A stretch of DNA of 64,000 nt from an uncultured Gammaproteobacteria bacterium (GTDB lineage: Bacteria > Patescibacteriota > Patescibacteriia > UBA9934 > GWF2-40-263): the NCBI GenBank assembly GCA_964399675.1, contig CAYNRK010000005.1, positions 766 to 64,765 on the forward strand. The letters are read 5' to 3'. How positions within the stretch are numbered: position 1 is the first letter of the stretch; the number at the start of each line of letters is the position of its first letter. The notes under the pieces are model-generated. The model saw only the letters and a program-made list of their open reading frames with translations, was not told where the DNA came from and made no database searches. A program made the position numbers and the translations under genes. Shown here in pieces: positions 3,585 to 26,495 of this stretch.

Positions 3585-3652
3585 ACACCCGCCGTCGCTC
3601 TTGTAGAGCTATGGCGGGCGAGGCCCCCGTAGCCAGCTGGCCGCGGGGGTGT
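3585..3652 (-). terminator. Terminator region of paralog 2 (two GC hairpins)
   Basis: acccgccgtcgctc..gagctatggcgggcg and cccccgtagccagctggccgcggggg. T-rich on the minus strand after the first (rc of aatagaaac). Confidence 0.45.
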
Positions 3653-3676
3653 ACGTCGTTGAGCTCGACGAGTCGT

Positions 3677-5137
3677 CTACTCGCGAGGGGTGATCGAGGG
3701 AACGCAGTGGCCCTGGATGCTCAGCATCTCGAGCTTGACCTCCGGAACTGTGTTCATGAGTTTTTGGATCTCCGCGGCAAAGCCGGTTGGGAGATCGTGG
3801 AGCGTACAGCGTTTGGCCTTGACCACGACGCCTTGCTTCTGATCACCTTCGGCCTTGGCTCGGGCATCTTCCAGCTCTCCGGCTCGCTTGACCCCCTCCA
3901 GGTACGCTCGGTGGTCGGCATCGGCGTGCTCGGAAGCGCTGAGCTGTCCGTCACCGTCCTTGTCGCCCTTGAGCGGGGTATCGTGGTTCGCCCCCTTGAT
4001 CGGGAGGTCGTCGGCTTCCGGGGCTTTGTCGTGATCCGTGGCTGCCACGACTTCGCCGAGCAGCTCCTCGTAGAACTTCTTGTCCGCCCCGAGCTTTGCG
4101 AGATCATCCTGGGCGTCGTGGATCCAGAGCGCTGCCTCGTCTCCCTCGATGTCGTGTGCGAACACGGCCAGCCAGATCCGGTAGATCCGGATCATGTCTG
4201 CGTCAGCCTTGGACGCGATTGCCCGACGATAGAGCATGCTCTGCATGGGGTTGTCCTTCGCAAAGGATTCTGTGTCGTCCTCGTCCTCTTCGTCGTACTT
4301 GATCTCCTCGTCGAACGTCTCCCAGTCGAACCCGCTTGCTTGCCAGAGCTCGGTGAGTCTCCGGTTGAGCGCATTCCTCTGGGACTCGTTGAGGGTTCGA
4401 ATGGCGGTTCTGATCCAGGGGCCGCTCAAGCGCAGGGCGGTTCTGTTGGCCACGAGTTTTTTGAGGAGCTCCACGATTGGGTCGTACAACGAACCCTCTT
4501 CGCGATCGAACTTGCCGTACGGGATGAACTTGCCCTCGTGGTAGTACCTGTACTGCACGTCCACATCCGGGTTGGCGTGATCGGTTTTCGGGTTGTCCAG
4601 TCCAGACGCGATCAGGCCGGCCAGATCCTGAGGCCTACCTGAGAAGGTTACGGTCTGGGTGACCGCGTCCTTCCTCCAGCTGCTCTCCTTGACCTTGCAT
4701 GTCCAGTAGGTCCGTCCGTCTGCAGGACGGGTTACCAGCACCTGCGATCCCTCCAGCACATTCGTGCTTCTGCTGAGCACCAGGGGAACCGGCGGGAACC
4801 GGTTGTTCTTCAGGATCGGAAGGTCTTTGGGCGCACGCTTCACCTTGCCTCTCAGCAACTTGAAGCTGTCCTTGACGTCTGTTGCGAGCTCTGAGAGCTC
4901 GTCCTGTGCAGCCTGGGCTTTGCTGCGGATCTCTTGCTCTGTAGTCCGCGTTTCCTCGGGGTTGAGCCGCCGTGCAATCTCAGGGGTGCACTCAGTACTG
5001 GTGTCGAACTTGTTGTCCGGATCCGGGAGTGCCTTGGGGGTCTTGACTACCTTGGCTGCGGGTTCTGGCTTGCGATCTGCGCCGCAGGCGCAGAGCATGG
5101 CCGCAGTGGCCACTGCGAGAATGTAGGTGCGTAGCAC
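3677..5137 (-). CDS. Exported lipoprotein-like protein, paralog 2 (unknown function)
   Basis: Start trimmed to the GTG at 5137-5135 (GTG CTA CGC ACC TAC = M L R T Y), analogous to paralog 1 MLRNRY, paralog 4 MLRARV and paralog 3 MRHTY; it is preceded by aaaggag. The ORF-track start at 5194 is a TTG inside the promoter. N-terminus ..AVATAAMLCACGADRK is lipobox-like. Carries the conserved family blocks plus a long acidic C-terminal extension. Confidence 0.6.
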   Translation of the reverse strand: MLRTYILAVATAAMLCACGADRKPEPAAKVVKTPKALPDPDNKFDTSTECTPEIARRLNPEETRTTEQEIRSKAQAAQDELSELATDVKDSFKLLRGKVKRAPKDLPILKNNRFPPVPLVLSRSTNVLEGSQVLVTRPADGRTYWTCKVKESSWRKDAVTQTVTFSGRPQDLAGLIASGLDNPKTDHANPDVDVQYRYYHEGKFIPYGKFDREEGSLYDPIVELLKKLVANRTALRLSGPWIRTAIRTLNESQRNALNRRLTELWQASGFDWETFDEEIKYDEEDEDDTESFAKDNPMQSMLYRRAIASKADADMIRIYRIWLAVFAHDIEGDEAALWIHDAQDDLAKLGADKKFYEELLGEVVAATDHDKAPEADDLPIKGANHDTPLKGDKDGDGQLSASEHADADHRAYLEGVKRAGELEDARAKAEGDQKQGVVVKAKRCTLHDLPTGFAAEIQKLMNTVPEVKLEMLSIQGHCVPSITPRE

Positions 5138-5183
5138 TAGACGTCTCCTTTGTAGACGTAAGTTGGTAAGGTGCGGAGAATGA

Positions 5184-5212
5184 AGATACCACAAAATAGG
5201 CTTTTTGTCAAT
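5184..5212 (-). promoter_or_regulatory. Sigma70-type promoter of paralog 2 (TTGACA-17-TATCTT)
   Basis: rc reads TTGACAaaaagcctattttgtggTATCTT, followed by the conserved leader. Confidence 0.5.
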
Positions 5213-5215
5213 ATT

Positions 5216-5332
5216 CTTGCGTCATTGCGAGGAGGCCATCCGACGGCCGACGAAGCAACCCCGTTTTCGAGTTCGTAAACGAGATTGCTTCGCTTAATAA
5301 GCTATTCTCGCTCGCAATGACGCGAGTTGCAG
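5216..5332. repeat. Nested palindromic MITE/REP-like element (gcgtcattgcgaggagg ... ctcgcaatgacgc)
   Basis: Outer IR cgtcattgcgag / ctcgcaatgacg with an inner IR gaagcaa / ttgcttc. It is an extra ~117 bp here compared with the other three inter-paralog spacers. A partial inverted copy lies at 13585..13640. Confidence 0.45.
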
Positions 5333-5344
5333 TTTTCCAAATAG

Positions 5345-5385
5345 AAACACCCGCCGTCGCTCTTGTTGAGCTATGGCAGGTGAAG
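5345..5385 (-). terminator. Terminator of paralog 3
   Basis: acccgccgtcgctcttgttgagctatggcaggtg hairpin, preceded on plus by aaatagaaac (a T-run on the minus transcript). Confidence 0.45.
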
Positions 5386-5410
5386 TGGCTGGTTAGGCCG
5401 AGAGGGGTGT

Positions 5411-6466
5411 CTACTTGAGGCCTTGGACGAGCCGCTTGTAGAACGACTTGTCTTTCCGGAGCTTCCTGACGTCCTCTTGGACTTCGTGGATCCAGAGTCC
5501 GGCCTGGTCTGCCTCAATGTCTTGCGCAAGCGCTGCCAGCCAGATCCGGTAGATCCGGATCATGTCCTCGCCGATCTTGGAGGCCTTGGCGCGTTGGTAG
5601 AGCATTAGGCACATGGGATCCATTCTGCCGAAGTTGGCTTTTTTCACCCCCGAGTACTTGAGTCGGGTTGCATGCCAGAGCTCGAGAAGCCGTCGGTTGA
5701 GTCCGGTTCGTTGATCTTTGGTCAAGCCTTGCGCGATCTTGCGAACCCAGGGCCCGGCCTTCTTCACCGCCTTTGGGTTGGCGACGAGCTTTCGCAGCAG
5801 CATGACGATCGGGTCCTTGCCGTCGCTTCCTCTGAGGAACTTGCCGTACGGGATGAAATTCCCATTTGCGTAGAAGTGGTGTTGGCCAAAGCTGCCATCG
5901 TCTTTGTGGTTGCCAGGATGATGTGCCAGGCCCTTGACGATCATGCCGGCAAGCGTTCTGGGCAATCCATCGAATGGCACGTTGCGTGTGATCTCGCCTG
6001 ACTTGTCGAATTCTGGCACGACCTCGCAGGTGATATAGGTATAGTTGTCTGCCTTACGGGTCTTGGCAGGACAGTTGGGAGCGAGTCCTTTTTTGAAACG
6101 GACAGTGACGTTCACTGGAACCTGAGGGAACCTGCCTTTTCTGAGCAAGGGCAGATTCCTGGGAGCGTTTTTGATCCGCTCGTTGAGGTGGATCATCCCG
6201 TGATGTACGTCACTCTCGATGGCCTGGAAGTCTGTACGTGCCTTTTTTTCATGCTCGCGCAGTTGAGCTTCTGCACGATTGACCGAGTTTGGATGGAGCC
6301 TTGACCCCACCTCTACGGTGCATTGGTTGCACTCGCAATAGTCTGGAGCCGAGCCCAACAGTTTCGGTTCTTTCCCGGACGACTCGTCCGATGATGACTC
6401 ATCCGATCCGCTGCAAGCGCACAGCATGGCCGAAACGACCATTGCGAGAATGTAGGTATGACGCAT
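5411..6466 (-). CDS. Exported lipoprotein-like protein, paralog 3 (unknown function)
   Basis: ATG start. MRHTYILAMVVSAMLCACSGSDESSSDESSGKEP has a signal + Cys + Ser-rich linker. Conserved blocks: GPWVRKIAQGL, LMLYQRAKASKIGEDMIRIYRIWL, LWIHEVQEDVRKL. Confidence 0.65.
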   Translation of the reverse strand: MRHTYILAMVVSAMLCACSGSDESSSDESSGKEPKLLGSAPDYCECNQCTVEVGSRLHPNSVNRAEAQLREHEKKARTDFQAIESDVHHGMIHLNERIKNAPRNLPLLRKGRFPQVPVNVTVRFKKGLAPNCPAKTRKADNYTYITCEVVPEFDKSGEITRNVPFDGLPRTLAGMIVKGLAHHPGNHKDDGSFGQHHFYANGNFIPYGKFLRGSDGKDPIVMLLRKLVANPKAVKKAGPWVRKIAQGLTKDQRTGLNRRLLELWHATRLKYSGVKKANFGRMDPMCLMLYQRAKASKIGEDMIRIYRIWLAALAQDIEADQAGLWIHEVQEDVRKLRKDKSFYKRLVQGLK

Positions 6467-6513
6467 TGGCCGTCTCCTTGTGGTAGACGTAGGTTGATAA
6501 GGTACGGAGAGTT

Positions 6514-6542
6514 AAGATACTACAAAATCAGCTTTTTGTCAA
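6514..6542 (-). promoter_or_regulatory. Sigma70-type promoter of paralog 3 (TTGACA-17-TATCTT)
   Basis: rc reads TTGACAaaaagctgattttgtagTATCTT plus the conserved leader. Confidence 0.5.
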
Positions 6543-6549
6543 TAATAGA

Positions 6550-6585
6550 AACACCCCCGCGGTCAGCTGGTTGCGGGGGTATGTG
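6550..6585 (-). terminator. Terminator of paralog 4
   Basis: cccccgcggtcagctggttgcggggg hairpin; minus transcript continues tgtttctattatt. Confidence 0.5.
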
Positions 6586-6606
6586 TGTTGAGCCAAGAAG
6601 TCCTGT

Positions 6607-7728
6607 CTATTCCTCTTCCACTTTCTTGGGAAGGTTGAGGCGCGAGATGAGCAGCCTATACTTGTGTTTGTCCCTCTCGAGCTTCTTGAGATCCTCGCGG
6701 ACAACGTGCGCCCACTTGGCAACCTGGGCCTCTGCTCCTGCGTCGTGCGCGAACGTGATCAGCCAGGCTCTGTAGATCCTCATGAGATCTTCGCCAATGC
6801 GGGAAGCGAGCGCGCGACGGTACATGAGGCCGTGCATTTCGTTTCCGTCACTTTGTGTGAAGTCCTTATCGGCGTTGACCTGCTTGGCGAACTCGTCAAA
6901 GTCAAAGACGGTTGCCTTCCACAACTCCTCGAATCGCCCTGACAACACTCGTTTTTGCCCTTCGGGCAAAAGCTTGATCACCTTACGAACCCACGGTCCA
7001 GCATGTAGCAAGAAGAAGGGAGACACTACGAGCTCTTTGAGTTTTTCAGTGATTGGATCATGAATTGACCCATTAGGCTCGAAAGTTACCAAAGGGATGA
7101 ATCCGAATCCTTCTTCTGCGTCATAGTTGGAGTAGTACGTGTATTGTTCGTTGGTGTCTTCGAATCCAAAATCTTCGATTTTGTATAGTACCAGCCCTGC
7201 GAGTTCACGCGGGTTTCCAGAGAATTGCCCCATGTTTTCGTGGGTCATGTATTCGGTGTGATTGGTTATGCAGGTCGTATATGCGAGACCATCGGATTCG
7301 CGTTCCATTTCGAATTCGTAGGTTTCGAGATAGTTTTCTGGAACACTGAGCCAGAAGACGGGTTTTGCAAGCTGCACCTTTTTCTTTAGCTTGAATGGAG
7401 TTTTTGGAAGACTCCTTCCAAGCTCAAAGGCGCTTTTCAACGATGCTTTTACCCCTTCGATTTTTTTGGGATTTGCAGCCTCAGCATCTTCGAACTCTTT
7501 TTTGGATGATGCAGAGTGCTCTGGATCAAGCTTCCCAGCCATCACCTCAGTGCACTCCTCACCTTCCTTGAGTTCATTGCTTGGTCTGGGAAGCGGTTGA
7601 GGTTCAATGTCTGTTTGCGCGACTGGTTTTGGTGCTTCTGCGTTCGGGCTGAAACGCCAGAGCAGAAGAACTGCTGCGGCCAAGATCAAGGCCGCTCCGA
7701 CTACTGCAGCTACTCTTGCACGTAGCAT
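6607..7728 (-). CDS. Exported protein, paralog 4 (unknown function)
   Basis: ATG start. N-terminal hydrophobic anchor. Conserved blocks shared with paralog 1 along the whole length (PSNELKEGEECTE.., RELAGL, GPWVRKVIKLL, LMYRRALASRIGEDLMRIYRAWLITFAHD, WAHVVREDLKKL). Confidence 0.65.
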   Translation of the reverse strand: MLRARVAAVVGAALILAAAVLLLWRFSPNAEAPKPVAQTDIEPQPLPRPSNELKEGEECTEVMAGKLDPEHSASSKKEFEDAEAANPKKIEGVKASLKSAFELGRSLPKTPFKLKKKVQLAKPVFWLSVPENYLETYEFEMERESDGLAYTTCITNHTEYMTHENMGQFSGNPRELAGLVLYKIEDFGFEDTNEQYTYYSNYDAEEGFGFIPLVTFEPNGSIHDPITEKLKELVVSPFFLLHAGPWVRKVIKLLPEGQKRVLSGRFEELWKATVFDFDEFAKQVNADKDFTQSDGNEMHGLMYRRALASRIGEDLMRIYRAWLITFAHDAGAEAQVAKWAHVVREDLKKLERDKHKYRLLISRLNLPKKVEEE

Positions 7729-7768
7729 CGGTACTCTCCTTGATCGTATTGGTAAGGTGCGGAGAGTT

Positions 7769-7797
7769 AAGATATTACAAAATTAGCTTTTTGTCAA
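7769..7797 (-). promoter_or_regulatory. Sigma70-type promoter of paralog 4 (TTGACA-17-TATCTT)
   Basis: rc reads TTGACAaaaagctaattttgtaaTATCTT plus the conserved leader. Confidence 0.5.
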
Positions 7798-7804
7798 TAC
7801 GAAA

Positions 7805-7840
7805 CACCCGAGGAGTTTTTCGGGTGTGAGTCTGGTGTTG
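7805..7840 (-). terminator. Terminator of membrane-protein gene 7861..8670
   Basis: cacccgaggagtttttcgggtg hairpin; minus transcript followed by tttcgtatt. Confidence 0.4.
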
Positions 7841-7860
7841 AGTTGCCCTTTTGGGCGAGC

Positions 7861-8670
7861 CTATGGGTTCGGGCGGAGCCGGATCAGTTCGTTCAGATTC
7901 TGGTCCCAGGTGTGCATCAGCTTGAGCTGCACGATTACGCCACGATGCCCTTCGGAGAATCGCACTTGAAGGGGTGAATCAGCCAGGAGGTGTAGGTCGA
8001 GCGTTTCGAGAAGGTCGATCAGTCGACCACGCATCTTGCGCATGCCTTTGAGCCATTCCGCGTGGTCGTTGAGGTATGACTCAGGGTGAGTCACGTTTTC
8101 TTCGAGCCAGATGACCTCTTTGGCCCAGCGGGCTCTGAGGGTTCGCAGGCCTTTGAACCACGCGCACCTGAAGTCTGGGCTGATGTCGATGAACCTGCGC
8201 ATGAGGTGTCGGTTTTTTTCCGACAACCAGAACGCCAGGTAGTACCCAGCGAACACGGCCGCAAACATCACGAGCAAGATGTGTGCCGGAAAGGCACGTT
8301 CATTCACGAAGCTTGTGAAGCTGATGCCATCGGGCCGTGGACTGCTCAGGATTGCTGCGGTTGTGCCAAAGGCCATGATGAATGTGATGATGCACACCAC
8401 CATGTAGTCTGGCGGTACGTGCGCGATGAGGACAATGACGCCTATCATGTGCAGCAGCGCCAGGACGCGTTGCAGCAAGATGATTCGTTGGGTCCTTTGT
8501 TGTAGCGAACGAGCATGTGCTGGTTGCAGCGAAAGCAGATTGAACAGGTACAGAACACGTGACGTCAGAACATCATCGTTGATCCGCCTGATGTCGAGAG
8601 CGTTAGTAGCGGTGGTTGTCAATTCATTTCCCCTGGAGTGGTTCCTGCCAACGACAAAAGCTATCATCAT
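7861..8670 (-). CDS. Hypothetical integral membrane protein
   Basis: 269-aa ORF in the same orientation and GC-rich block as the paralogs, with several predicted TM helices (VIVLIAHV.., VVCIITFIMAFGTTAAIL, ILLVMFAAVFAGYYLAFWL). No recognisable motifs. Confidence 0.45.
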   Translation of the reverse strand: MMIAFVVGRNHSRGNELTTTATNALDIRRINDDVLTSRVLYLFNLLSLQPAHARSLQQRTQRIILLQRVLALLHMIGVIVLIAHVPPDYMVVCIITFIMAFGTTAAILSSPRPDGISFTSFVNERAFPAHILLVMFAAVFAGYYLAFWLSEKNRHLMRRFIDISPDFRCAWFKGLRTLRARWAKEVIWLEENVTHPESYLNDHAEWLKGMRKMRGRLIDLLETLDLHLLADSPLQVRFSEGHRGVIVQLKLMHTWDQNLNELIRLRPNP

Positions 8671-8697
8671 CCCAGCCTTTTGTCAATTATAGAAAAC

Positions 8698-8730
8698 AAA
8701 AGACCCCCAAAATTTTGGGAGTCTTTTGGT
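8698..8730. promoter_or_regulatory. Dyad cccccaaaattttgggag near the promoter of 7861..8670
   Basis: Near-palindrome aagaccccc-aaaatttt-gggagtctt next to cttttgtcaat (rc attgacaaaag, -35-like). Same CCCAAAA-TTTGGG core as 3547..3575. Confidence 0.3.
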
Positions 8731-9228
8731 GTCTCAGGATATGTCTGTAAGCCGAATTTTGTCTTCCCTTGGTTTTCACCAAGAGGAGGTGGAAATCTAT
8801 CTAGCCTGACCATTGCTGGCCAGATCATGCGAGCTACCAAATTTGCTCTTACACCGGAAAGGGTTTGCCACGTCTCCATGTCACCATGGGACGAAACATG
8901 TAGCAGATGAAATAAATCTCAACCACACCATGTCACTTTTCACGTTTCATTCAGCCGAAGCTGAACTAGTATCGTCTCTGCGGCACTTTCCCTAGGCTTA
9001 AGTTCAGATGCCAAGGAGTGAATAAATCCAACTCCTCGATTTCTGATTTGTATACCCGGTCGCCGTTAGCGACTTTCCTTTTTTTGTAAGGTTGCCCTAT
9101 ACAAAGGTGTTCGGACTTTCCTCGTATCCACAAAGGACACGTATCCACCCGACATTCCTGGGACGCGGAGATAGTACCAAAGATAGGACAAAAAGTCAAG
9201 GTTGTTTACTTTAATTAAGTTAAAACGA

Positions 9229-18308: not shown

Positions 18309-21149
18309 ATGTCCGACTATATTTCCGTACGCGGAGCTCGCGTTCACAATTTGAAAAACATTGACGTCAACATTCCGAAGAACAAGTTGGTGGTAGTTAC
18401 CGGGCTTTCCGGTTCTGGAAAATCTTCGATTGCTTTTGACACTGTGTATGCTGAAGGGCAGCGTAGATACATGGAGTCGCTTTCCAGTTACGCACGTCAA
18501 TTTCTTGAGCTCCAAGACAAACCAGATGTAGATGAAATTTTAGGTCTTTCTCCAACCATTGCCATTGATCAAAAAAGCTCTTCGCACAATCCACGTTCAA
18601 CCGTTGGAACTGTGACTGAGATTTATGATTTTTTGCGCGTGTTGTTTGCGCGCGCCGGTCGTCCGCATTGTCCAAAATGTGGCACACTTGTTAAAGAACA
18701 AACTCTTGATCAGATTGTAGACAAGGTCGCTGATATGATCGGCAATGATCCTATCAATTTATTTGCACCGGTTGTGCAACAGCTTAAAGGCGAGCACAAG
18801 CACGTGCTCAAAGCAGCAACAAACACTGGCTTCACAAGAGTTCGTTTTGATGGATTTTTAATGGATATTGATGAAGCGGTTTCAATGCGCAAGGACAAAA
18901 AGAAACCTCATGATGTTGATGTTCTTATCTTTACTTTTGATCCGGAGATTGAGTATTCAAAAGACCATATAAAGCAACTTGCAAAAAAAGCTCTTGATTA
19001 TGGGAATGGTTTCATTACGCTTGTTAATGATGAAAACGGTGATGAAGTTACACTTTCTCAAAGTTTCATGTGTGGAACCTGCTCGCTTAATCTGCCAAAA
19101 CCAGAGCCTAGACTTTTTTCATTTAACTCTCCGTTTGGAGCATGCAAAGAATGTACCGGTCTTGGAGAAAAATTAGTGCTTGAACCAGAGCTTGTAATTC
19201 CAAACAAGCGCCTCACGTTTGCAGAGGGTGCGGTGCGGCCCTGGACAAGAATTGCCGGGAATCAGACAAGCTACATTCGCATGCTTGAGATGGTTGGCAA
19301 GAAACATCGTGTTTCAATGAACACACCAATAGAAAAAATTACAAAAAAGAAATTAGATCTTGTTTTATTCGGCACAGGCGAAGATGAATATAAATTTGAT
19401 GGCATCACTGTTACGTTCCCTGGAATTTTGGCACAACTTTCTCAGAAGTATCGCGAGACTGATTCTGAATATGTTCGATCAGAACTTGAAGGATACATGC
19501 GTAGAATGATATGTCCGTCATGTGAAGGAAAAAGACTTAGCCCTGAAGTTCTTGCTGTAACAATTGGCGACAAATCAATTGCTGATGTTGTAAACATGCC
19601 AATCGAAGATGTTGTTGCATTATTTTCAGATCTTACTAAAAACGGAAGAAGTAAAGACGAGCTCACAGAAGAGGAGCAAATGGTTGTTGATCGTGTTTCA
19701 AAAGAAGTGCAAGCACGTTTGTCTCAATTAACTGATGTTGGGCTTGGGTATTTGACCCTTAATCGTTCTGCAATGACATTGTCCGGCGGAGAAGCTCAAC
19801 GTGTTCGGCTTGCCACACAACTTGGATCACAACTTTCCGGTGTGATTTATATTTTAGACGAGCCATCAATTGGTCTTCATCCACGCGACAACGATCGATT
19901 GATTTCAACCATTCAAAAATTAAAAGCTTTTGGAAATTCAGTAATTGTTGTTGAGCATGATGCTGCAATGATTGAAGCCGCTGATTATGTTTTTGATGTT
20001 GGGCCTGGTGCTGGTGAATACGGCGGTGAAGTTGTTGCAGAGGGTACGGCAGCTCAGATTAAAAAGAAACCAGATTCGCTTACGGGTCAGTACATGTCAG
20101 GAAAGAAATCAATTCCACTTCCAAAAAAGTATCGAAAGGGAAATGGAAAGAATTTGGTTATTCAAGGCGCAACTGCTTTTAATCTAAAAAACATTGAAGC
20201 AGAGATTCCGCTTGGAAAGCTTGTGTGTGTGACAGGTGTTTCAGGTTCTGGAAAATCAACACTCATTCTTGATATTTTAGGCAAGGCACTTTCCAGAAAG
20301 TTTTATCGAGCAAAAGTTTATCCAGGTGATCACAAAGCAATTAAAGGAATCGAACACATTGATAAAGTTGTGGCTGTTGATCAGTCTCCGATTGGACGAA
20401 CACCTCGATCTAATCCTGCAACATACACCGGTGTGTTCACAGCGATTCGTGATCTTTATACAAACGTTCCGGAAGCCAAGATGCGCAACTTTGACGCAGG
20501 GAAGTTTAGTTTTAATGTAAAAGGTGGTGGGCGCTGTGAGCCGTGTTCCGGAGATGGTATGCGTCGTATTGAAATGCAATTTTTGCCGGATGTTTATATT
20601 GAATGTTCAGAGTGCAGGGGAACTCGTTACAACACAGAAGTTTTGGAAATCCATTACAAACAAAAAAACATAGCGGATGTTCTTTCTATGACAGTTGAGG
20701 AAGCACGGCGCTTTTTTGCTGATCAGTCTGCTATTTTTGACAAGCTTAATATTTTGCATGAAGTGGGACTTGGCTACATTAAGCTTGGTCAACCTGCTAC
20801 CACGCTTTCAGGTGGAGAGGCACAGCGCGTAAAGCTTGCAACAGAACTTTCACGCCGCGCAACCGGGCGTACTCTTTATGTTTTGGATGAACCAACAACA
20901 GGACTTCACTTTGAAGATATTAAGCGGCTGCTTGGCGTTTTGCATCAGCTTGTTGATAAGGGAAATACTGTTGTAATCATTGAGCACAATATGGACGTGA
21001 TAAAAGGCGCGGATTGGATTATTGATATGGGTCCAGAGGGCGGTATTAAGGGTGGGGAAATAGTGGCGATTGGCACACCAAAGGAAATTGTTAAAGTAAA
21101 AGAAAGTTTGACCGGAAAGTATTTAAAAAATTCTCTGAAATCAAAGTAA
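18309..21149 (+). CDS. uvrA: Excinuclease ABC subunit A
   Basis: 946 aa. Two ABC ATPase modules (GLSGSGKSS and GVSGSGKST Walker A; LSGGEAQR signatures) and zinc-finger Cys clusters ([24 protein letters not shown]). Confidence 0.95.
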
Positions 21150-21180
21150 TTTAGCTAAAATTAGTAAAGTTTCCATGAAA

Positions 21181-21206
21181 GCCTGTTGACAAAACAGGCT
21201 TTTTGG
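21181..21206 (+). terminator. uvrA terminator hairpin (contains a TTGACA box)
   Basis: gcctgttgacaaaacaggc followed by tttttgg. The 22-nt core ttgacaaaacaggctttttggt recurs at 24101..24122. Confidence 0.5.
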
Positions 21207-21327
21207 TTTACTTTAGGTCAGTTCATCGGGAGTTAATCTCTTGAAAACCCGCGCACGGCGGTTCCGTGTATTAGCTGGTGTCTAGGCGTTACAAGCGTTA
21301 CATGGGCATCAGACAAGGAGAGTCACA

Positions 21328-22107
21328 ATGAGTGACAAAAGAGTCGTCTCTAACAGAGACGAACTGGCGCTTCGGCGTCAGTGGGATGAGGTTCTTCAGC
21401 AGGTTTTGCGTGACTCTGGCATGTTTGCGCAATTGCGCTACTGCGTGCAGCAAGTTGGCGAGGGTCACAACATTGTCGATCCTGCGCAACTTGGCCAGGC
21501 AAAGCAAAAGCACAACCGCGCTCAGGAACGCCAGCAGGCCATGGAGACGTTCTACCGCGATCTCGGGTTCGACGAGCTCGAGATCCCTGTGCCCACAATG
21601 GACGGCAAGCCAATCTCCAACCGCGAGTTCGGTCGAAGAGCAAAGGCCAACCAAGCGCTTTTTTACCGTCCGGCCACTTCGGACGTCTCCTACGAGGCGT
21701 TCATGCAGGCCGTGGGTCAGGACGAGCACTGGACGGTCGCGGACGAGGACGAGCGTGCAAAGATCGCCTGGGAGCCCACTGAGGAAGGCTACTGGTTCTG
21801 GGCTGAGGTCCAGGACAGCTGCCCACGTACGGGCACGTGTTGGAACGACCTCACTGCCGAGCACACCCTTCTCTGCATTGAGGAGTACGTGATCGTTTGG
21901 CATGCCATGCGCGTGCTCGAGGACACGCTCATCGATCGTTCTACGTGGTCTTGGCTGCGAACACGCTACCAGACCGATTCCGGCTCCGGTGCCCTCTACG
22001 TCTTCGAGTACGATGGCGGGGTGGACGTCTACAGGAGCAGGCCTGAGCACTTGTCGATCGACTACGACTACGTTGGCGGTCGTGTCTCGGAAGTGGTCAA
22101 CCTCTGA
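21328..22107 (+). CDS. DGR target (variable) protein with C-terminal variable repeat
   Basis: 259-aa GC-rich ORF. The last ~42 codons (..DSGSGALYVFEYDGGVDVYRSRPEHLSIDYDYVGGRVSEVVNL) are a diversified copy of the TR at 22470..22595. The VR ends 5 nt before the stop, as is usual for DGR targets. A CLec/FGE-like fold is inference. Confidence 0.8.
   Translation: MSDKRVVSNRDELALRRQWDEVLQQVLRDSGMFAQLRYCVQQVGEGHNIVDPAQLGQAKQKHNRAQERQQAMETFYRDLGFDELEIPVPTMDGKPISNREFGRRAKANQALFYRPATSDVSYEAFMQAVGQDEHWTVADEDERAKIAWEPTEEGYWFWAEVQDSCPRTGTCWNDLTAEHTLLCIEEYVIVWHAMRVLEDTLIDRSTWSWLRTRYQTDSGSGALYVFEYDGGVDVYRSRPEHLSIDYDYVGGRVSEVVNL
21977..22102 (+). repeat. DGR variable repeat (VR)
   Basis: 126 nt aligned to the TR with 15 mismatches. 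14 of them are at TR adenines (VR has T, TT, G, G, G, T, G, C, T, TT, G ...); one is at a TR thymine. Confidence 0.85.
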
Positions 22108-22469
22108 GTCTTGTGACTTGAGAGCCTGGGTCTCCTGTTCACCTGTCTCTTGTTCCCCAACGTCGAGCTGCGCTCGACGTTGGGGGATTTTCAATTAAGC
22201 TCAATTTTTGAGATAATCATCTTGATGAAGGTTCGTAGATTCAAGTTTTCTGAATTTGGATTACCAACATCCTCTGGTTATTGATGAGAGTCTATGCTTA
22301 ATAAGCAAAGAGAGGTCAATAACTAGCAGAAATAAAGTTGACCACTTCGTGCTGTTTTTAGTGTGGATAGCCATAACTGGCTTGCCACTGCAGTCTCCTC
22401 CGAAGCTCGGAGTACAGAAGGTGACCTGCGGGTTTCCTTTGGTGATTACGGATGGGAACAGCACAATGC

Positions 22470-22595
22470 AATCCGGCTCCGGTGCCCTCAACGTCAACGA
22501 GTACAATGGCAGGGTGAACGTCAACAGGAACAGGCCTGAGAACTTGTCGATCGACTACGACAACGAAGGCGGTCGTGTCTCGGTAGTAGTCAACC
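22470..22595 (+). repeat. DGR template repeat (TR)
   Basis: Non-mutated, A-rich cognate of the VR; in frame it is full of AAC/AAT codons (..ALNVNEYNGRVNVNRNRPENLSIDYDNEGGRVSVVVN). 363 nt downstream of the target stop, upstream of avd/RT. Confidence 0.85.
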
Positions 22596-22601
22596 AAACA
22601 G

Positions 22602-22626
22602 AAAACGTCCCTTTGTGGGACGTTTT
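22602..22626. other. Perfect 10-bp stem-loop immediately 3' of the TR
   Basis: aaaacgtccc-tttgt-gggacgtttt. It could be the structured RNA element flanking the TR (used for priming in characterised DGRs) and/or the terminator of the convergent avd gene. Confidence 0.45.
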
Positions 22627-22628
22627 CG

Positions 22629-23042
22629 CTATGGGTCAAGGCCGAGTTTTTTTCTTGTATTCTTTCGCCAACTTCCTAGCATCTTTCCAATTTTTTGCAA
22701 ACGTTCTTGTCGATATGTGTATCCTTGAAGCTTATAAATACCAAGGTCATGGATAAGTCTAATGAAAATTTTCATCAAGTCCAATTTTCTTTGGGTTTTA
22801 TCAAGCAAGATTATTCTTTCTGGTAATGAAAGATTATTTGCTTCCCACACAGATTCGATGATATAGAGTGTGTTGTTTTTCAGTTTTTCACCAATGGCAT
22901 ATCGTTCTGTTTTAGGATATCGACTCACATCCATGTGTAATAGTTTGTACCATTCATAGAGTTTATGTATCAATCCGAACTCTTCACCAACAAATCCTGT
23001 GAGCCATTTATCAAGTCCCGTGAGGGGGGGCTTAATTGTCAT
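22629..23042 (-). CDS. avd: Accessory variability determinant (Avd)-like four-helix-bundle protein
   Basis: 137-aa basic protein with the Avd / 23S-rRNA-IVS-protein family signature ..RYPKTERYAIGEKLKNNTLYIIESVWEAN.. (PK-E-R-Y-x-[IL]-x-x-[KQ]-L pattern). Sits between the TR and the RT on the opposite strand. Confidence 0.6.
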   Translation of the reverse strand: MTIKPPLTGLDKWLTGFVGEEFGLIHKLYEWYKLLHMDVSRYPKTERYAIGEKLKNNTLYIIESVWEANNLSLPERIILLDKTQRKLDLMKIFIRLIHDLGIYKLQGYTYRQERLQKIGKMLGSWRKNTRKKLGLDP

Positions 23043-24068
23043 AGTTTATTTGATAATTGCATATCGTTTGAAAATTTATATCTTGCTTGGGAAGATTTTC
23101 GGAAAGGTAAGATGTTTAAAGCAGATATTCTTGCGTTTTCCATGCATCTTGAAGATGAATTATTTTGTCTTCATCAAGAGCTTTCGACAGGCACATATCA
23201 ACATGGAACTTACAAACAGTTTTATGTTCATGACCCAAAGCGACGATTAATTAGCAAAGCAAGCGTGCGGGATCGGGTGGTTCATCAGGCGATTGTAGAT
23301 ACGATCGGTCATCATTTTGAGAAGAGCTTTATTCATGATACTTATTCTTCTTTGGTTGGAAAAGGTGTTCATCCGGCTGTGAATCGTCTTGATAAATTTT
23401 TAAGGCAAGCCTCAAGTAATGGTCAACATATCGTCTATGCACTCAAATGTGACATTAGTAAGTACTTTGACTCGATCAGACACGACATCCTTCTCTCATT
23501 TATAAGAGATCGTATCGAAGATGAAAAGATGCATGCTCTTATTGAAATCATCGTTCATAGTTTTTCGTCAGACAAACAAAAAATACGTGGGTTACCTCTT
23601 GGAAATACTACAAGTCAATTGTTTGCCAATGTTTATCTTGATCGATTTGATCATTGGATAAAGGAACGCTTGCGCGTGCGGTGGCACGTTAGATTCTGTG
23701 ACGACTTTGTTATTTTACATGAAGACAAAGAATTACTTAACCGACTGTTAGAACCAATTCAACAATATCTTACTCGAGAATTGGATTTACAACTACATCC
23801 AAACAAAATTGTTATCAGAAAATATTCGCAGGGGATTGATTTTTTAGGTCAGATTTTGCGACCTTATTGTCGGACAATGCGCAAGAAAACAAAGAAACGA
23901 GCTATTAGAAATACACATACACGGGTTTTGGAGTACAAAAAGGGTGAAATTACAGACGGGGAATTTCGGTCATCGATTCAGTCGTATGTTGGGTTACTCA
24001 AACACGTTTCAGAGAGAAAGCTATACTATTTAATCAAGGAAATTTGTTTAGTTTTAGTTAAAAAATAG
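22965..24068 (+). CDS. DGR reverse transcriptase
   Basis: RT motifs: ISKASVRDRVVHQAI (motif 1), ALKCDISKYFDSIRH (motif 2), GLPLGNTTSQLF (the [ILV]GxxxSQ motif-4 signature that distinguishes DGR RTs from the group II QGxxxSP), RFCDDFVIL (catalytic DD), GIDFLGQ. The true start may be the GTG at 23021; the 5' end overlaps the divergent avd start. Confidence 0.9.
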   Translation: MYQSELFTNKSCEPFIKSREGGLNCHSLFDNCISFENLYLAWEDFRKGKMFKADILAFSMHLEDELFCLHQELSTGTYQHGTYKQFYVHDPKRRLISKASVRDRVVHQAIVDTIGHHFEKSFIHDTYSSLVGKGVHPAVNRLDKFLRQASSNGQHIVYALKCDISKYFDSIRHDILLSFIRDRIEDEKMHALIEIIVHSFSSDKQKIRGLPLGNTTSQLFANVYLDRFDHWIKERLRVRWHVRFCDDFVILHEDKELLNRLLEPIQQYLTRELDLQLHPNKIVIRKYSQGIDFLGQILRPYCRTMRKKTKKRAIRNTHTRVLEYKKGEITDGEFRSSIQSYVGLLKHVSERKLYYLIKEICLVLVKK

Positions 24069-24100
24069 ATGTTTTACTGCCTGCAAGTTCGATTCTTGCA

Positions 24101-24122
24101 TTGACAAAACAGGCTTTTTGGT
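24101..24122 (+). repeat. Second copy of the 22-nt ttgacaaaacaggctttttggt (direct repeat flanking the DGR; promoter-like TTGACA-17-TATATT)
   Basis: Identical 22-mer to 21186..21207. Here it is followed by gtatattg, giving TTGACA-17nt-TATATT upstream of 24222..25934. Confidence 0.5.
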
Positions 24123-24221
24123 GTATATTGTTGCGTTATCTACTATTGAAAAAAATGGATAGATATGTATAGATAAGCAGGAACAAGCTTTATCAACTCA
24201 CATCCATCATCAATAAAAATT

Positions 24222-25934
24222 ATGCTTAAGAAATCAATTACTATTCTCGCGGTCCTTGCGATCGCTGTGAGCCCACTCCTTCCATCAGCCCAGGCGGACG
24301 ATGGTTCTTGGCATTCTGTGATTGCAGAGTCAAGTTGGGATTACGATTTTTATCGGGTTCAACAGGTTGCTTTTGATAAGAATGTCAGTGACCTGCACGA
24401 GCTTGGAGATGCTGTGTTTGTAACACAAACGTCTGAGTTGTGTGAGTACGAAGATTTGTGTAACCAAGTGGACGTAACAGTTTTCAAAGACGGTTCGTCT
24501 CGAACAATCAGTGGTGTAGACAATCGTATTACTTCACCGTTTTGGCACTTAGCTCAAGATGATCACTTTGTTTATTTTATCCCATCAGAAGGCGAGGATA
24601 AGTGGCTAACAGTTTTTGAATACGATTCGGTTCTTGGAACAATAAACGAACTTACAGAACTCGAGCGTGAAGAAAAGGAACTCAAGTTCATGACTCTTGC
24701 TACAGACAGTAATCGAGTTTATACATCGATTATTCGTGAAGAGCCTGAGTCACATGAAGTAGAAACGATGCTTTCTGTTAATGACTTTGAAAATGGTTTT
24801 GAGCGAGATGATTTCACTTCAACTCTAACTGCTCCATGGCAGGAGATTGTTGATGTGCGTGAAAACGTTGCGCTTGTGAAGTTTCAGTTTGAAGGTGGGT
24901 TTAAGCAACTTTGGTTGGTTGATCAAACCAATCGTCAGATGGATTCAATTCCGAAAACCTGGACAGAACCCCATGCTGATCTTATTGCCCCACACTTTCG
25001 TTCAGATGGAACAGTGAGTTACTTCCAAAACTTTCGACGATATACATATGATCCATCAGTAGAGAATGCACAGCCAATTGAACACGGCGGCGCATACCTA
25101 AACTGGTTGGAAGATCCTGCTGATGTAATTCAGGTTAGCGGTGATCGGGTTGCTTGGGTTGACGACACCAACATGCTTTATGTAAGTGATGTAAATGGTG
25201 TGAGTAAATTCGGAATTGCTCTTAACGGTTTGTTTGCTCTTGGAAATGATAATATCTATTTTCAGAGTGTAGACGGCTATATGGGATACAGTTTTTCTAC
25301 AGGTACATGGGTTAAACGAGCTTTCCACGTAACAGATACTTATGAGGATATTGTTGTCGGTATTGATGAAAATCAAAATATTTGGTACGAAAACACCACA
25401 AGTGGATACATGCTCAATATGGGGTATGGATCTGAGCCACTTCTTTCTGACCGCGAACATGCGTATTGGAAAGGTGTGGATGGAAAGGTGTATCAGGTAA
25501 GTTTCTCAGGTCTTCTTGATGTGCAGATGCCAGAGGTTCAAGCCTATAGTTCTTATAACAGCGACAAGATTTATCTTATTTCAGAAAATAAGATTTCACA
25601 TGTTCCAAACCCTGATGTTTATTTCAGCTACTTTGACTCATATTCACAGGTAAAGAATGTGACAAGTGCAACTTTGGATGTGTATAAGGATTTGTATCAA
25701 GATGCCGGTCAGGCCGGGTTTGCAGTAGGAACACGAATCAAAGCAAAAAACAATTCCCGTGTTTACGTTGTTGGAACAGATGGAAAACTTCACTGGATTA
25801 TTTCTGAAACCGTTGCTGATTCAATTTATGGATCAGATTGGAATCAGGGAATCATGGAAGTGAATCCTGAGTATCTGTGGCGATACGCACACGGAACAAA
25901 TATTGCATCCGGAAAAGCAATGAAAACAATTTAA
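24222..25934 (+). CDS. Hypothetical secreted protein
   Basis: 570 aa with a signal peptide (MLKKSITILAVLAIAVSPLLPSAQA). No recognisable catalytic motif; aromatic/Gly-rich segments may be beta-propeller-like. Confidence 0.5.
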   Translation: MLKKSITILAVLAIAVSPLLPSAQADDGSWHSVIAESSWDYDFYRVQQVAFDKNVSDLHELGDAVFVTQTSELCEYEDLCNQVDVTVFKDGSSRTISGVDNRITSPFWHLAQDDHFVYFIPSEGEDKWLTVFEYDSVLGTINELTELEREEKELKFMTLATDSNRVYTSIIREEPESHEVETMLSVNDFENGFERDDFTSTLTAPWQEIVDVRENVALVKFQFEGGFKQLWLVDQTNRQMDSIPKTWTEPHADLIAPHFRSDGTVSYFQNFRRYTYDPSVENAQPIEHGGAYLNWLEDPADVIQVSGDRVAWVDDTNMLYVSDVNGVSKFGIALNGLFALGNDNIYFQSVDGYMGYSFSTGTWVKRAFHVTDTYEDIVVGIDENQNIWYENTTSGYMLNMGYGSEPLLSDREHAYWKGVDGKVYQVSFSGLLDVQMPEVQAYSSYNSDKIYLISENKISHVPNPDVYFSYFDSYSQVKNVTSATLDVYKDLYQDAGQAGFAVGTRIKAKNNSRVYVVGTDGKLHWIISETVADSIYGSDWNQGIMEVNPEYLWRYAHGTNIASGKAMKTI

Positions 25935-25988
25935 ACGATCTTAAAAGATCAAAATCAAAACATGCGACGGTCGTCGCATGTTTTGATT

Positions 25989-26495
25989 TTAGGCTTGTGT
26001 CTCTTTAAGTTTTCTCTTAAAGCGGCGTTTAACATTTTTGAGAAAGCCTAGCTTTGCACGTCTAACCTTTGCTGATTTCACAAGTTCAATCTTTGCAACA
26101 ACAGGGGAGTTGATTGGAAAGATTTTTTCTACAGCGTATCCACCGGTTGAGATTTTTCTAATGGTGAGTGTTCGTGAAATACCCGCACCTTTGATTCCAA
26201 GGATGATCCCTTCAAATATTTGAACACGCTCCCGTTCTGTGCCTTTGGCTGAAATGTCTTTAATCCGTTCATGTAACTTTACGGTTTGTCCCGGTTTGAG
26301 CTCATCAAAGTTTACAAGCTTTGATTTGTAGGCAGGCTCAGTTTTTTTGTCTGTGTCATCTCGACCGGAGTCCGACCCTTGGTCGGACGGAGCGGAGAGA
26401 TCTCGAGATCCCTCGGCTTCGCCAGCTTCGCTGGCTTCGCTCGGGATGACATGGTGAGTATTTTTTTCAATTGTGTTTTGGTCTTCTTCAGTCAT
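25989..26495 (-). CDS. rplS: 50S ribosomal protein bL19 with an acidic/Ser-rich N-terminal extension
   Basis: C-terminal 115 aa match bL19 (..GQTVKLHERIKD..RVQIFEGIILGIKGAGISRTLTIRKISTGGYAVEKIFPINSPVVAKIELVKSAKVRRAKLGFLKN). ~50-aa N-terminal extension that includes the palindrome gtccgacccttggtcggac. Confidence 0.8.
   Translation of the reverse strand: MTEEDQNTIEKNTHHVIPSEASEAGEAEGSRDLSAPSDQGSDSGRDDTDKKTEPAYKSKLVNFDELKPGQTVKLHERIKDISAKGTERERVQIFEGIILGIKGAGISRTLTIRKISTGGYAVEKIFPINSPVVAKIELVKSAKVRRAKLGFLKNVKRRFKRKLKETQA

Follow-up and report, generated by a model that had tools for sequence, protein, structure and literature searches.

Is the reverse transcriptase (RT) gene that follows a pair of closely similar repeats in a Candidatus Uhrbacteria genome part of a genuine diversity-generating retroelement (DGR), and how would such an element carry sequence from its template repeat (TR) to the variable repeat (VR) of its target gene? 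The DNA in question, here called the window, is a stretch of 64,000 nucleotides (nt) from contig CAYNRK010000005.1 (assembly GCA_964399675.1), which we compared with about 15 related Uhrbacteria loci. We find that the window contains a genuine chromosomal DGR with the layout typical of the candidate phyla radiation (CPR), and we put the explanation as a whole, DGR identity and the RNA mechanism proposed below taken together, at roughly 85%. Through its RT, this cassette alters the tip of a single protein at positions that adenines template. An initial annotation, made from the sequence, had listed a full set of DGR components, and the open reading frame (ORF) map and a recount of the repeats place every one of them where it had put them (Table 1).

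Results and discussion

Identity and layout of the element

The VR (21977–22102) and the TR (22470–22595) align without gaps over 126 nt at an offset of 493, and a repeat search returns the ungapped pair 21979–22102/22472–22595. Fifteen positions differ. Fourteen of these fall on TR adenines, which make up 34 of the 126 nt, and one falls on a thymine (TR 22584 T, VR 22091 A), exactly the tally of the initial annotation; the probability of at least 14 of 15 on adenines is 1.2e-7 (binomial) or 1.3e-8 (hypergeometric). Within the transferred core (22472–22583), 12 of 28 adenine-templated sites are changed, as against none of the 84 remaining sites. In the VR frame the TR reads SGSGALNVNEYNGRVNVNRNRPENLSIDYDNEGGRVSVVVN and contains seven AAC codons and one AAT, as expected of a repeat that had been described as packed with them. 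The VR occupies the 3′ end of the target ORF (259 aa), again as annotated, and ends 2 nt before the TGA stop codon (22105–22107). In both repeats a GC-rich block, GGCGGTCGTGTCTCGG, is followed by an end that differs between them, AAGTGGTCAACCTC in the VR and TAGTAGTCAACCAA in the TR, and the differences are common to two VR alleles. The T/A site (22584/22091) and an A/G site (22588/22095) also occur in the VR of a second locus, L002, and are therefore fixed differences between the initiation of mutagenic homing sequence (IMH) and its TR counterpart IMH*, not products of mutagenesis. By sequence, both sites mark the IMH/IMH* boundary.

The RT ORF carries GLPLGNTTSQLFAN, whose motif LGNTTSQ, already singled out by the initial annotation, aligns with IGSLTSQ of the phage BPP-1 RT (bRT) and has the form [I/V/L]GxxxSQ that is the DGR RT motif (definition: PMC7826257). 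Among solved structures the closest relative is bRT (PDB 8ub7, E 9.2e-37, 130 bits), with residue 26 of the window RT aligned to residue 6 of bRT; the best group II intron RT, GsI-IIC, reaches E 5.3e-18, ahead of the RTs of retrons and defence systems. The two bRT residues with a demonstrated role in promoting adenine mutagenesis, R74 and I181, correspond in the alignment to R94 and L212. An RT of a group II intron, retron or defence system beside an ordinary duplication is refuted by the recount together with the Pfam, structure-relative and Rfam results: the best NCBIfam model is indeed group_II_RT_mat, at 141.6 bits well below its cut-off of 300, but bRT leads the solved relatives by 19 orders of magnitude in E-value, the motif is LGNTTSQ and not QGxxxSP, the Rfam scan gives no intron RNA domain or other family (none at E ≤ 1 in 20000–26000), the mismatches are adenine-specific (P ~1e-7), and an Avd adjoins the RT.

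That Avd, a protein of about 137 aa that had been proposed between the TR and the RT, exceeds the gathering score of the Pfam bAvd family; a PDB sequence search with it gave no meaningful match. The ORF map gives the gene order target (with the VR), TR, avd on the reverse strand, and RT. The core of this order, TR (22472–22595, plus), avd (22629–23042, minus) and RT (22965–24068, plus), is that of architecture B3, defined as TR-(avd)-RT with a reverse-strand avd, and 90% of the DGRs of CPR bacteria are built in this way (Wu et al. 2018, NAR 46:11, PMC5758913). The initial annotation had called the opposite-strand avd unusual. This does not hold, as the reverse-strand avd is a known norm in CPR bacteria and the element is typical in this respect. 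The B3 layout is kept in five related loci (L009, L013, L021, L022 and L023) and in two partial ones (L011 and L017), whose RTs and Avds are 52–57% and 62–69% identical to those of the window, respectively. Adenine-biased TR/VR pairs accompany it, with 18 mismatches at adenines and 1 other in L009, 26 and 1 in L013, and 21 and 2 in L023; L021 and L022 likewise have an adenine-biased pair with the same layout.

Table 1 Features of the DGR locus, in window coordinates.
Feature	Position	Strand	Remarks
Inserted DGR cassette, 2,890 bp: target, leader, TR, avd, RT	21211..24100	+	between uvrA and 570-aa gene
Left 25-nt direct repeat TTGACAAAACAGGCTTTTTGGTTTA	21186..21210	.	loop and 3′ arm of uvrA terminator
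Target gene, 259-aa ORF	21328..22107	+	no Pfam family, no signal peptide, 59% GC
VR (receives TR information)	21979..22090	+	contains GC-rich block GGCGGTCGTGTCTCGG at 22075-22090
IMH-like VR end GAAGTGGTCAACCTC	22090..22104	+	differs from TR at 22091, 22095, and from 22103 on
Perfect 14-bp hairpin, 3-nt loop	22155..22185	+	48 nt past target stop; target terminator
Predicted TR-RNA promoter: TTTTCA, 18 nt, GATAAT, with TG	22188..22217	+	-10 box 22212-22217
Structured leader	22227..22471	+	helices H1-H6
H1	22231-47/22253-68	+	leader helix
H2	22274-85/22315-26	+	leader helix
H3	22291-97/22305-11	+	leader helix
Primer/clamp element GTTGACCACTTC	22337..22348	+	pairs TR 3′ flank; perfectly complementary to VR IMH
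H4	22349-59/22454-64	+	leader helix, 3′ strand 7 nt before TR
H5	22398-403/22407-12	+	leader helix
H6	22417-21/22436-40	+	leader helix
TR, templating part, 28 adenines	22472..22583	+	identical TR sequence present in L004
IMH* GTAGTAGTCAAC, non-transferred TR 3′ flank	22583..22594	+	differs from VR at 22584, 22588 in both VR alleles
10-bp perfect hairpin 22602-22611/22617-22626, A run before, T run after	22602..22626	.	starts 6 nt after TR
avd, 137 aa from ATG 23042	22629..23042	-	Pfam PF22296 bAvd 47.5 bits vs gathering score 40
G7 homopolymer in avd/RT 5′ overlap	23024..23030	.	Gly-Gly in RT frame, Pro-Pro in avd frame
DGR RT, 367 aa from ATG 22965	22965..24068	+	bRT homology from residue 26; Pfam RVT_1
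Right direct repeat copy	24101..24125	.	33 nt past RT stop; part of downstream gene's promoter

A second VR allele and past activity

The initial annotation had taken the adenine pattern as a sign that the element has been active, and a second allele bears this out. The window corresponds to ENA scaffold SUTE22-1 scaffold_13, and its Avd protein is also encoded, identically, on a second scaffold (L002) and in L003, which comes from a different sample; the context there is a different one, between rpiB/DUF433 and ribulose-phosphate epimerase. From 22574 to ~23530 the L002 cassette matches the window at 100% identity, and elsewhere at ~84–90%. Against the window TR, over the span of 21977–22102, the L002 VR shows 17 differences, 16 at adenines plus the T/A site that it has in common with the window VR. 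Against its own adjacent TR it shows 31, of which 17 are at non-adenines. In the core, the L002 and window VRs differ from each other at 15 positions, all of them TR adenines, and neither departs from the window TR at any of the 84 non-adenine core sites, in target genes that are 16.4% diverged just upstream (P 3e-7). A window-type TR sequence therefore wrote both VRs, and by this comparison the window TR sequence has served at least twice as the source of a VR copied with adenine-specific errors. Such evidence is akin to population variation, but it comes from one extra allele and from consensus assemblies.

The mismatch between VR and TR in L002/L003 could reflect recombination that swapped the TR, a template acting in trans or a chimeric assembly. 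The 17 non-adenine differences from their own TR are largely synonymous in the VR frame, and the AAC codons are kept. A further locus, L004, has the right flank of the L002/L003 cassette but a window-type TR.

It is unlikely, in our view, that the DGR has recently been silenced or is rarely active, with the adenine pattern a record of past homing and the VR now static in the population. The target protein, VR included, is identical on 6 contigs from several samples (SUTE22-1, SCRA20-1 and JGI 3300009106), and its cluster at 90% identity holds this one sequence; the L002 and L003 VRs are identical across two samples; and the avd and RT ATGs are put out of frame by a G tract, described below, in 11–12 of 14 related lineages. 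Consensus assemblies would, however, hide minority VR variants, and the window's two ATG-initiated ORFs are intact and in frame (G7). Moreover, the TR keeps its AAC codons, and the RNA elements are all intact and under covariation. A scan of JGI metagenome contigs with the VR/TR pattern, in which TR adenines were replaced by N, gave no match in a collection that evidently does not include these samples.

Target gene and its family

The target has no Pfam match and no meaningful PDB sequence match. An AlphaFold model (predicted local distance difference test, pLDDT, 93) matches formylglycine-generating enzyme (FGE)-type and C-type-lectin folds, including those of the DGR targets TvpA and Mtd, in agreement with the C-type-lectin/FGE-like C terminus that the initial annotation had suggested. 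The C terminus is thus predicted, with high confidence, to be a C-type-lectin fold that bears the variable residues. As that annotation had also stated, the protein has no signal peptide, and the family, which is uncharacterised, is apparently cytoplasmic. Treponema TvpA (PDB 2y3c) and Mtd (PDB 1yu0) share no detectable sequence similarity with the target, which differs from them in its helical N-terminal domain, its lack of a signal peptide or lipobox and its GC-rich gene.

The GC content of the target gene (59%; 73% at third codon positions, GC3) stands out in a genome of 41% GC, in which uvrA has a GC3 of 32% and RT and avd are at 36–37% GC. The same excess is found in the target homologues of every genome, orphans included (L005 6001–6783, L009–L027). 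GC skew and ORF strand bias disagree on the orientation of the target relative to replication. Many genomes contain orphan target paralogues with no RT or Avd nearby (for example L005 6001–6783, on the window's scaffold about 190 kb away, L010 and L025). One of these, L010, lies on another contig of the metagenome-assembled genome (MAG) that contains L009, and it matches the L009 TR with 19 adenine and 4 other mismatches; remote targets therefore exist in this target family. A paralogue on the window's own scaffold, P0004, was rejected as a remote target of the window TR, with 47 mismatches in 113 positions and no adenine bias.

A structured leader and an upstream clamp

The related loci have in common a conserved region of about 360 nt, from the target stop to the TR, that comprises a hairpin, a −10 box, a 5′ motif (GAAGGTTCGTAGA, from 22227) and a leader of ~245 nt. 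The hairpin (22155–22185) keeps its position in all related loci while its sequence differs, and by analogy it corresponds to the hairpin found downstream of the IMH in other DGRs. Its loop (22169–22171) reads TGC in the window and the reverse complement, GCA, in L002/L003, so that the palindrome is flipped. The initial annotation had counted among the DGR components a 10-bp perfect stem that begins 6 nt after the TR; that stem is present as described, but the DGR-type hairpin is the one behind the target. The post-TR hairpin is scored as a terminator on the minus strand, and its position, though not its stem sequence, is kept in all relatives. It is best read as a bidirectional terminator common to the TR RNA (plus strand) and avd (minus strand). 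The −10 box is retained in 11 loci as TATAAT, TATACT, TACAAT or TAAAAT, ~10 nt before the conserved 5′ motif.

Covariation supports the leader fold. For 11 leaders, RNAalifold yields 53 pairs, 34 of them with compensatory (double) changes, compared with 12–20 in slid controls, and 93.6% of alignment cells are paired, compared with 76.7% in column shuffles and 40–48% with slid partners. In H4, 6 of the 11 pairs show double changes. The window RNA (22227–22630) folds with a z score of −4.3 (ViennaRNA).

In the leader-only consensus structure the clamp element is unpaired. It is complementary at 12 of 12 positions to the VR end GAAGTGGTCAAC (22090–22101) and at 10 of 12 to IMH*. An equivalent lies 196–245 nt past the target stop in all 11 loci with a downstream TR and in none of 12 orphan target paralogues, and four further loci found later, making 15 in all, have it as well. 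Compensatory changes occur in L011, L013, L014 and L023. In each locus the element continues on its 5′ side into sequence that fits the TR 3′ flank of that same locus: the duplex has a mean energy of −11.5 kcal/mol with the own flank versus −6.3 kcal/mol with the flanks of other loci, and the variable distal part taken alone gives −6.0 versus −2.5 kcal/mol (0 of 20,000 permutations in each case). These duplex energies and the permutation test replaced a noisy matrix of alignment scores of the element against VR and TR ends. Minimum free energy and centroid folds (ViennaRNA) pair 22337–22342 with 22589–22594. The element directly abuts the 5′ strand of H4 (22349–22359), whose partner strand lies 7 nt before the TR, and therefore one 23-nt segment (22337–22359) holds both TR ends. 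Taken together, the comparisons make a strong case for the leader structure and the clamp. The case for complementarity of the clamp to the IMH is a moderate one: contiguous complementarity from the clamp 3′ end extends over 8–14 nt to the IMH in 10 of 11 loci, as opposed to 1–6 nt to IMH*, the exception being L023 with a G-T wobble and a 1-nt offset.

These elements suggest the following route. The promoter at 22188–22217 would give an RNA of ~400 nt (~22227 to 22630) that contains the leader, the TR and the terminator hairpin. Leader segment 22337–22359 would clamp both TR ends, its 3′ half as H4 with 22454–22464 and its 5′ half, GUUGACCACUUC, by pairing with IMH* (22583–22594). By analogy with the BPP-1 spacer primer, RT-Avd would start the cDNA at the clamp/IMH* duplex, with a predicted priming site at about C22348/G22349, opposite TR G22583, and a first copied base at about 22582. 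It would then copy the TR, misincorporate opposite adenines and stop at H4. The cDNA, still linked to the RNA, would anneal to the VR sense strand, where pairing of the clamp with the IMH (22090–22101) would position it, and the perfect clamp-IMH pairing, versus the imperfect clamp-IMH* pairing, would give the TR-to-VR direction. The clamp is by this analogy the likely upstream counterpart of the BPP-1 spacer primer, and we infer that the DGR RNA of this clade is permuted relative to that of BPP-1, with the primer element upstream of the TR. We likewise infer, from its pairing, that the clamp has a role in target recognition.

A simpler view, which we consider doubtful, is that the element does no more than clamp the TR 3′ flank, or form a priming duplex with it, within one RNA molecule, and takes no part in target recognition. 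Its IMH match would then be a by-product of two circumstances, the origin of IMH* from the IMH and the conserved E-V-V peptide that the IMH encodes. In favour of this view, the element covaries most strongly with the TR 3′ flank, a non-coding stretch; an A-to-G change in the L023 clamp fits the TR (GAAGC) and not the VR (GAAGT); and GAAGTGGTC is conserved in orphan targets as well. A pure clamp, however, would be expected to match its own TR, and in every locus the element retains ACCAC, which is complementary to GTGGT of the VR, at a place where the TR has AA, CC or other bases. Its compensatory changes, moreover, follow the VR in L011 (GGTT/AACC), L013 (GTGAT/ATCAC) and L014 (14/14 match), and the same asymmetry of IMH over IMH* has been noted experimentally in BPP-1. 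A clamp that also recognises the target is the reading that we retain.

A homopolymeric tract at the avd/RT junction

The ATG codons of avd (23042) and RT (22965) overlap by 78 nt, in keeping with the overlap of the avd start and the RT 5′ end that the initial annotation had reported. Gene callers start the RT at M50 (318 aa) instead, and because of this the 367-aa RT has no match in an exact-sequence look-up. The overlap contains a tract of guanines, and such a tract lies at the avd/RT junction in every relative, as G7 in the window and L002 and as G6 to G13 elsewhere (loci compared: the window, L007, L009, L011, L013, L021–L023, L034, L035, L037 and L041–L044). The avd ATG, 7–14 nt beyond the tract, reads on the opposite strand as a conserved His codon of the RT; the RT ATG, 62–70 nt before the tract ends, likewise reads there as the codon for the invariant His26 of Avd. 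Each ATG is thus antisense to a His codon of the other gene, and for this reason both are in frame at one tract-length class only. A simulated change of the tract by one base removes both in-frame ATGs, in the window and likewise in 9 other loci. The in-frame class consists of the window, L002 and L023 (2–3 of 14 lineages) and the out-of-frame class of L007, L009, L013, L021, L022, L035, L037 and L041–L044, with L034 ambiguous. L007 represents the window's genomic context in another sample and has G8 versus G7, which is possibly an assembly error of a short-read homopolymer; over 8.8 kb it otherwise differs from the window only in a recombined avd allele, two RT single-nucleotide polymorphisms and a single-base deletion at 26107.

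In the overlap the RT frame has no conserved protein sequence, while over the same DNA Avd has a strongly conserved, clade-specific N-terminal extension (PP.[TN].[FL]D[KR]WLTGF.GEEFGL, conserved in 7 loci), which precedes the part homologous to bAvd. In the overlap, none of 23 Leu/Ser codons of avd is TTA, CTA or TCA, compared with 39 of 181 in the rest of the gene. From these patterns, gating of both genes by a slippage-prone poly-G switch is suggestive; other start codons, transcriptional slippage and homopolymer assembly error are possible alternatives. The wider proposal, in which the tract gates hypermutation so that it is on in a subpopulation only, and the DGR RNA is permuted, with an upstream guide that clamps both TR ends and carries the complement of the IMH, is tentative and falls somewhat short of an even chance.

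Poly-G/C tracts underlie phase variation at the homopolymeric contingency loci of Campylobacter, Neisseria and Bordetella. As at those loci, the tract (G6–G13) lies in 5′ coding sequence, and a one-base change shifts the reading frame; its assembled length, to which errors may contribute, differs from relative to relative and between two samples that represent one strain context. Unlike them, a single tract here sits in the antisense overlap of two divergent genes and would shift both at once.

Very nearly even odds attach to the competing account, in which the tract is no switch, Avd and RT start near or after it (GTG or TTG at Avd residue 24/25, a tract-adjoining GTG for the RT), and its length differences are neutral or assembly errors. 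Among 13 clusters, gene callers report an Avd of 113 aa in 6, or in 7 if one of 114 aa is included. The bAvd profile begins at residue 24–27 of Avd and bRT homology at residue 26 of the RT, an in-frame RT GTG is available in the +1 class of some loci (L007, L009 and L035), a His codon read in antisense can only be ATG or GTG, and homopolymers are error-prone in short-read assemblies. The Avd extension before residue 24 is, on the other hand, highly conserved (W13, L14, T15, G16, E20, E21 and F22 are invariant) and reachable only from the ATG beyond the tract, and in the out-of-frame loci this frame is closed 0–4 codons upstream of the tract. The RT frame, for its part, is kept open across the overlap by the avoidance of stop-antisense codons noted above, and a long tract persists in every lineage despite its drift in length.

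Comparison with known DGRs

The element has the same gene order and orientation as the CPR B3 DGRs (PMC5758913), a CPR host and a target without a recognisable sequence family, and we find no difference in architecture. With BPP-1 (mtd-avd-TR-brt) it has in common adenine-specific transfer from TR to VR, the [ILV]GxxxSQ motif, the equivalent of R74, an Avd partner, a GC-rich block that precedes the IMH in one repeat and IMH* in the other, a hairpin behind the target, a C-type-lectin target and an RNA element whose partner is the TR 3′ end and whose complementarity to the IMH exceeds that to IMH* (PMC5703328). Unlike BPP-1, avd is inverted and placed between the TR and the RT, the candidate primer lies ~125 nt upstream of the TR in a 245-nt leader and not in a downstream spacer, the TR is followed directly by the terminator (6 nt and a hairpin before the avd stop, with no downstream priming spacer), and the element is chromosomal, not phage-borne, with FCDD in place of YMDD.

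Several points weigh against the explanation as a whole. The catalytic motif is RFCDDF, invariant in five clade members, where bRT has YMDD. Avd, which passes the Pfam bAvd profile, scores 57.4 bits with NCBIfam NF033474 (DivGenRetAVD), below the cut-off of 80. The start codons of avd and RT are uncertain, and the promoter, both ends of the RNA and the site of priming are predicted. The clamp core is complementary to the codons of the conserved E-V-V peptide, and part of the clamp-VR match could reflect two separately conserved sequences; covariation of the clamp with the VR rests on 3–4 lineages. The unchanged target protein on 6 contigs, mentioned above, counts here too.

As a DGR, the locus adds one example, with an uncharacterised C-type-lectin target family, to a large CPR set. 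The comparative results weigh more, because how DGR cDNA finds and enters the VR has yet to be settled. Natural covariation across ~11 lineages supports a duplex between the RNA element and the TR 3′ flank and gives the exact nucleotides to mutate. In BPP-1 the RNA primer pairs more extensively with the IMH than with IMH*, which was proposed to set the direction of homing (Naorem et al., PMC5703328). The clamp core also fits the IMH better than IMH*, as those authors proposed from one phage, and by the present comparison a primer-like element can sit upstream of the TR. The poly-G switch, if true, would place a targeted hypermutator under stochastic on/off control. In the searchable literature we found no description of such control or of a tract of this kind in DGRs, nor of a clamp-bearing structured leader, an avd/RT homopolymer or an insertion footprint like the one that follows.

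Insertion and exchange of cassettes

In DGR-free Uhrbacteria, uvrA is followed after 139–169 nt by the gene for the 570-aa protein (this neighbour protein being 53–55% identical to the window's), and removal of 21211–24125 from the window leaves a spacer of 157 nt. The two direct repeat copies are identical at 24 of 25 positions, with no comparable pair in 100 shuffles. The repeat holds a −35 box, CTGTTGACAAAAC, that is present at the same place in the empty site of L039 (L039/L040 4830–5020); the predicted promoter of the downstream gene (TTGACA, 17 nt, TATATT) spans 24101–24129. This argues strongly for a cassette of 2.9 kb that was inserted here and is bordered by a 25-nt duplication. No integrase or transposase was found inside the cassette. 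Related cassettes occur elsewhere, next to rpiB (L002 and L041) and between pfkB and an aldolase gene (L042), and the flanking repeats in L002, L022 and L023, at 72–78% identity, are indistinguishable from chance. All contigs that carry an identical 570-aa neighbour begin inside the RT, and thus it is within the cassette that these assemblies break.

Two observations, the insertion footprint and the mosaics described next, show cassettes moving as units and apparently swapping TRs; a TR swap would let the VR change at non-adenine positions too. The cassettes are mosaic, with the block that is 100% identical between the window and L002/L003 measuring 960 bp. In L007 only avd is replaced (window 22694–22977), by an allele with 31 mostly synonymous substitutions, the majority of them in the third position of avd codons. 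In L014 a leader and a TR-like repeat (4542–4689) are followed by neither avd nor RT, and this locus may be a degraded or rearranged cassette; its repeat is closer to the VR end of L019, in the same MAG and with the stop codon included, than to its own VR. Many contigs break in the RT (L029–L033), as expected for a repeated block.

A second GC-rich stretch of the window, at ~3600–8700 and reaching 54.5% GC, contains five ORFs of 269–505 aa with no Pfam match and adjoins the RNase P RNA (8731–9160, minus strand).

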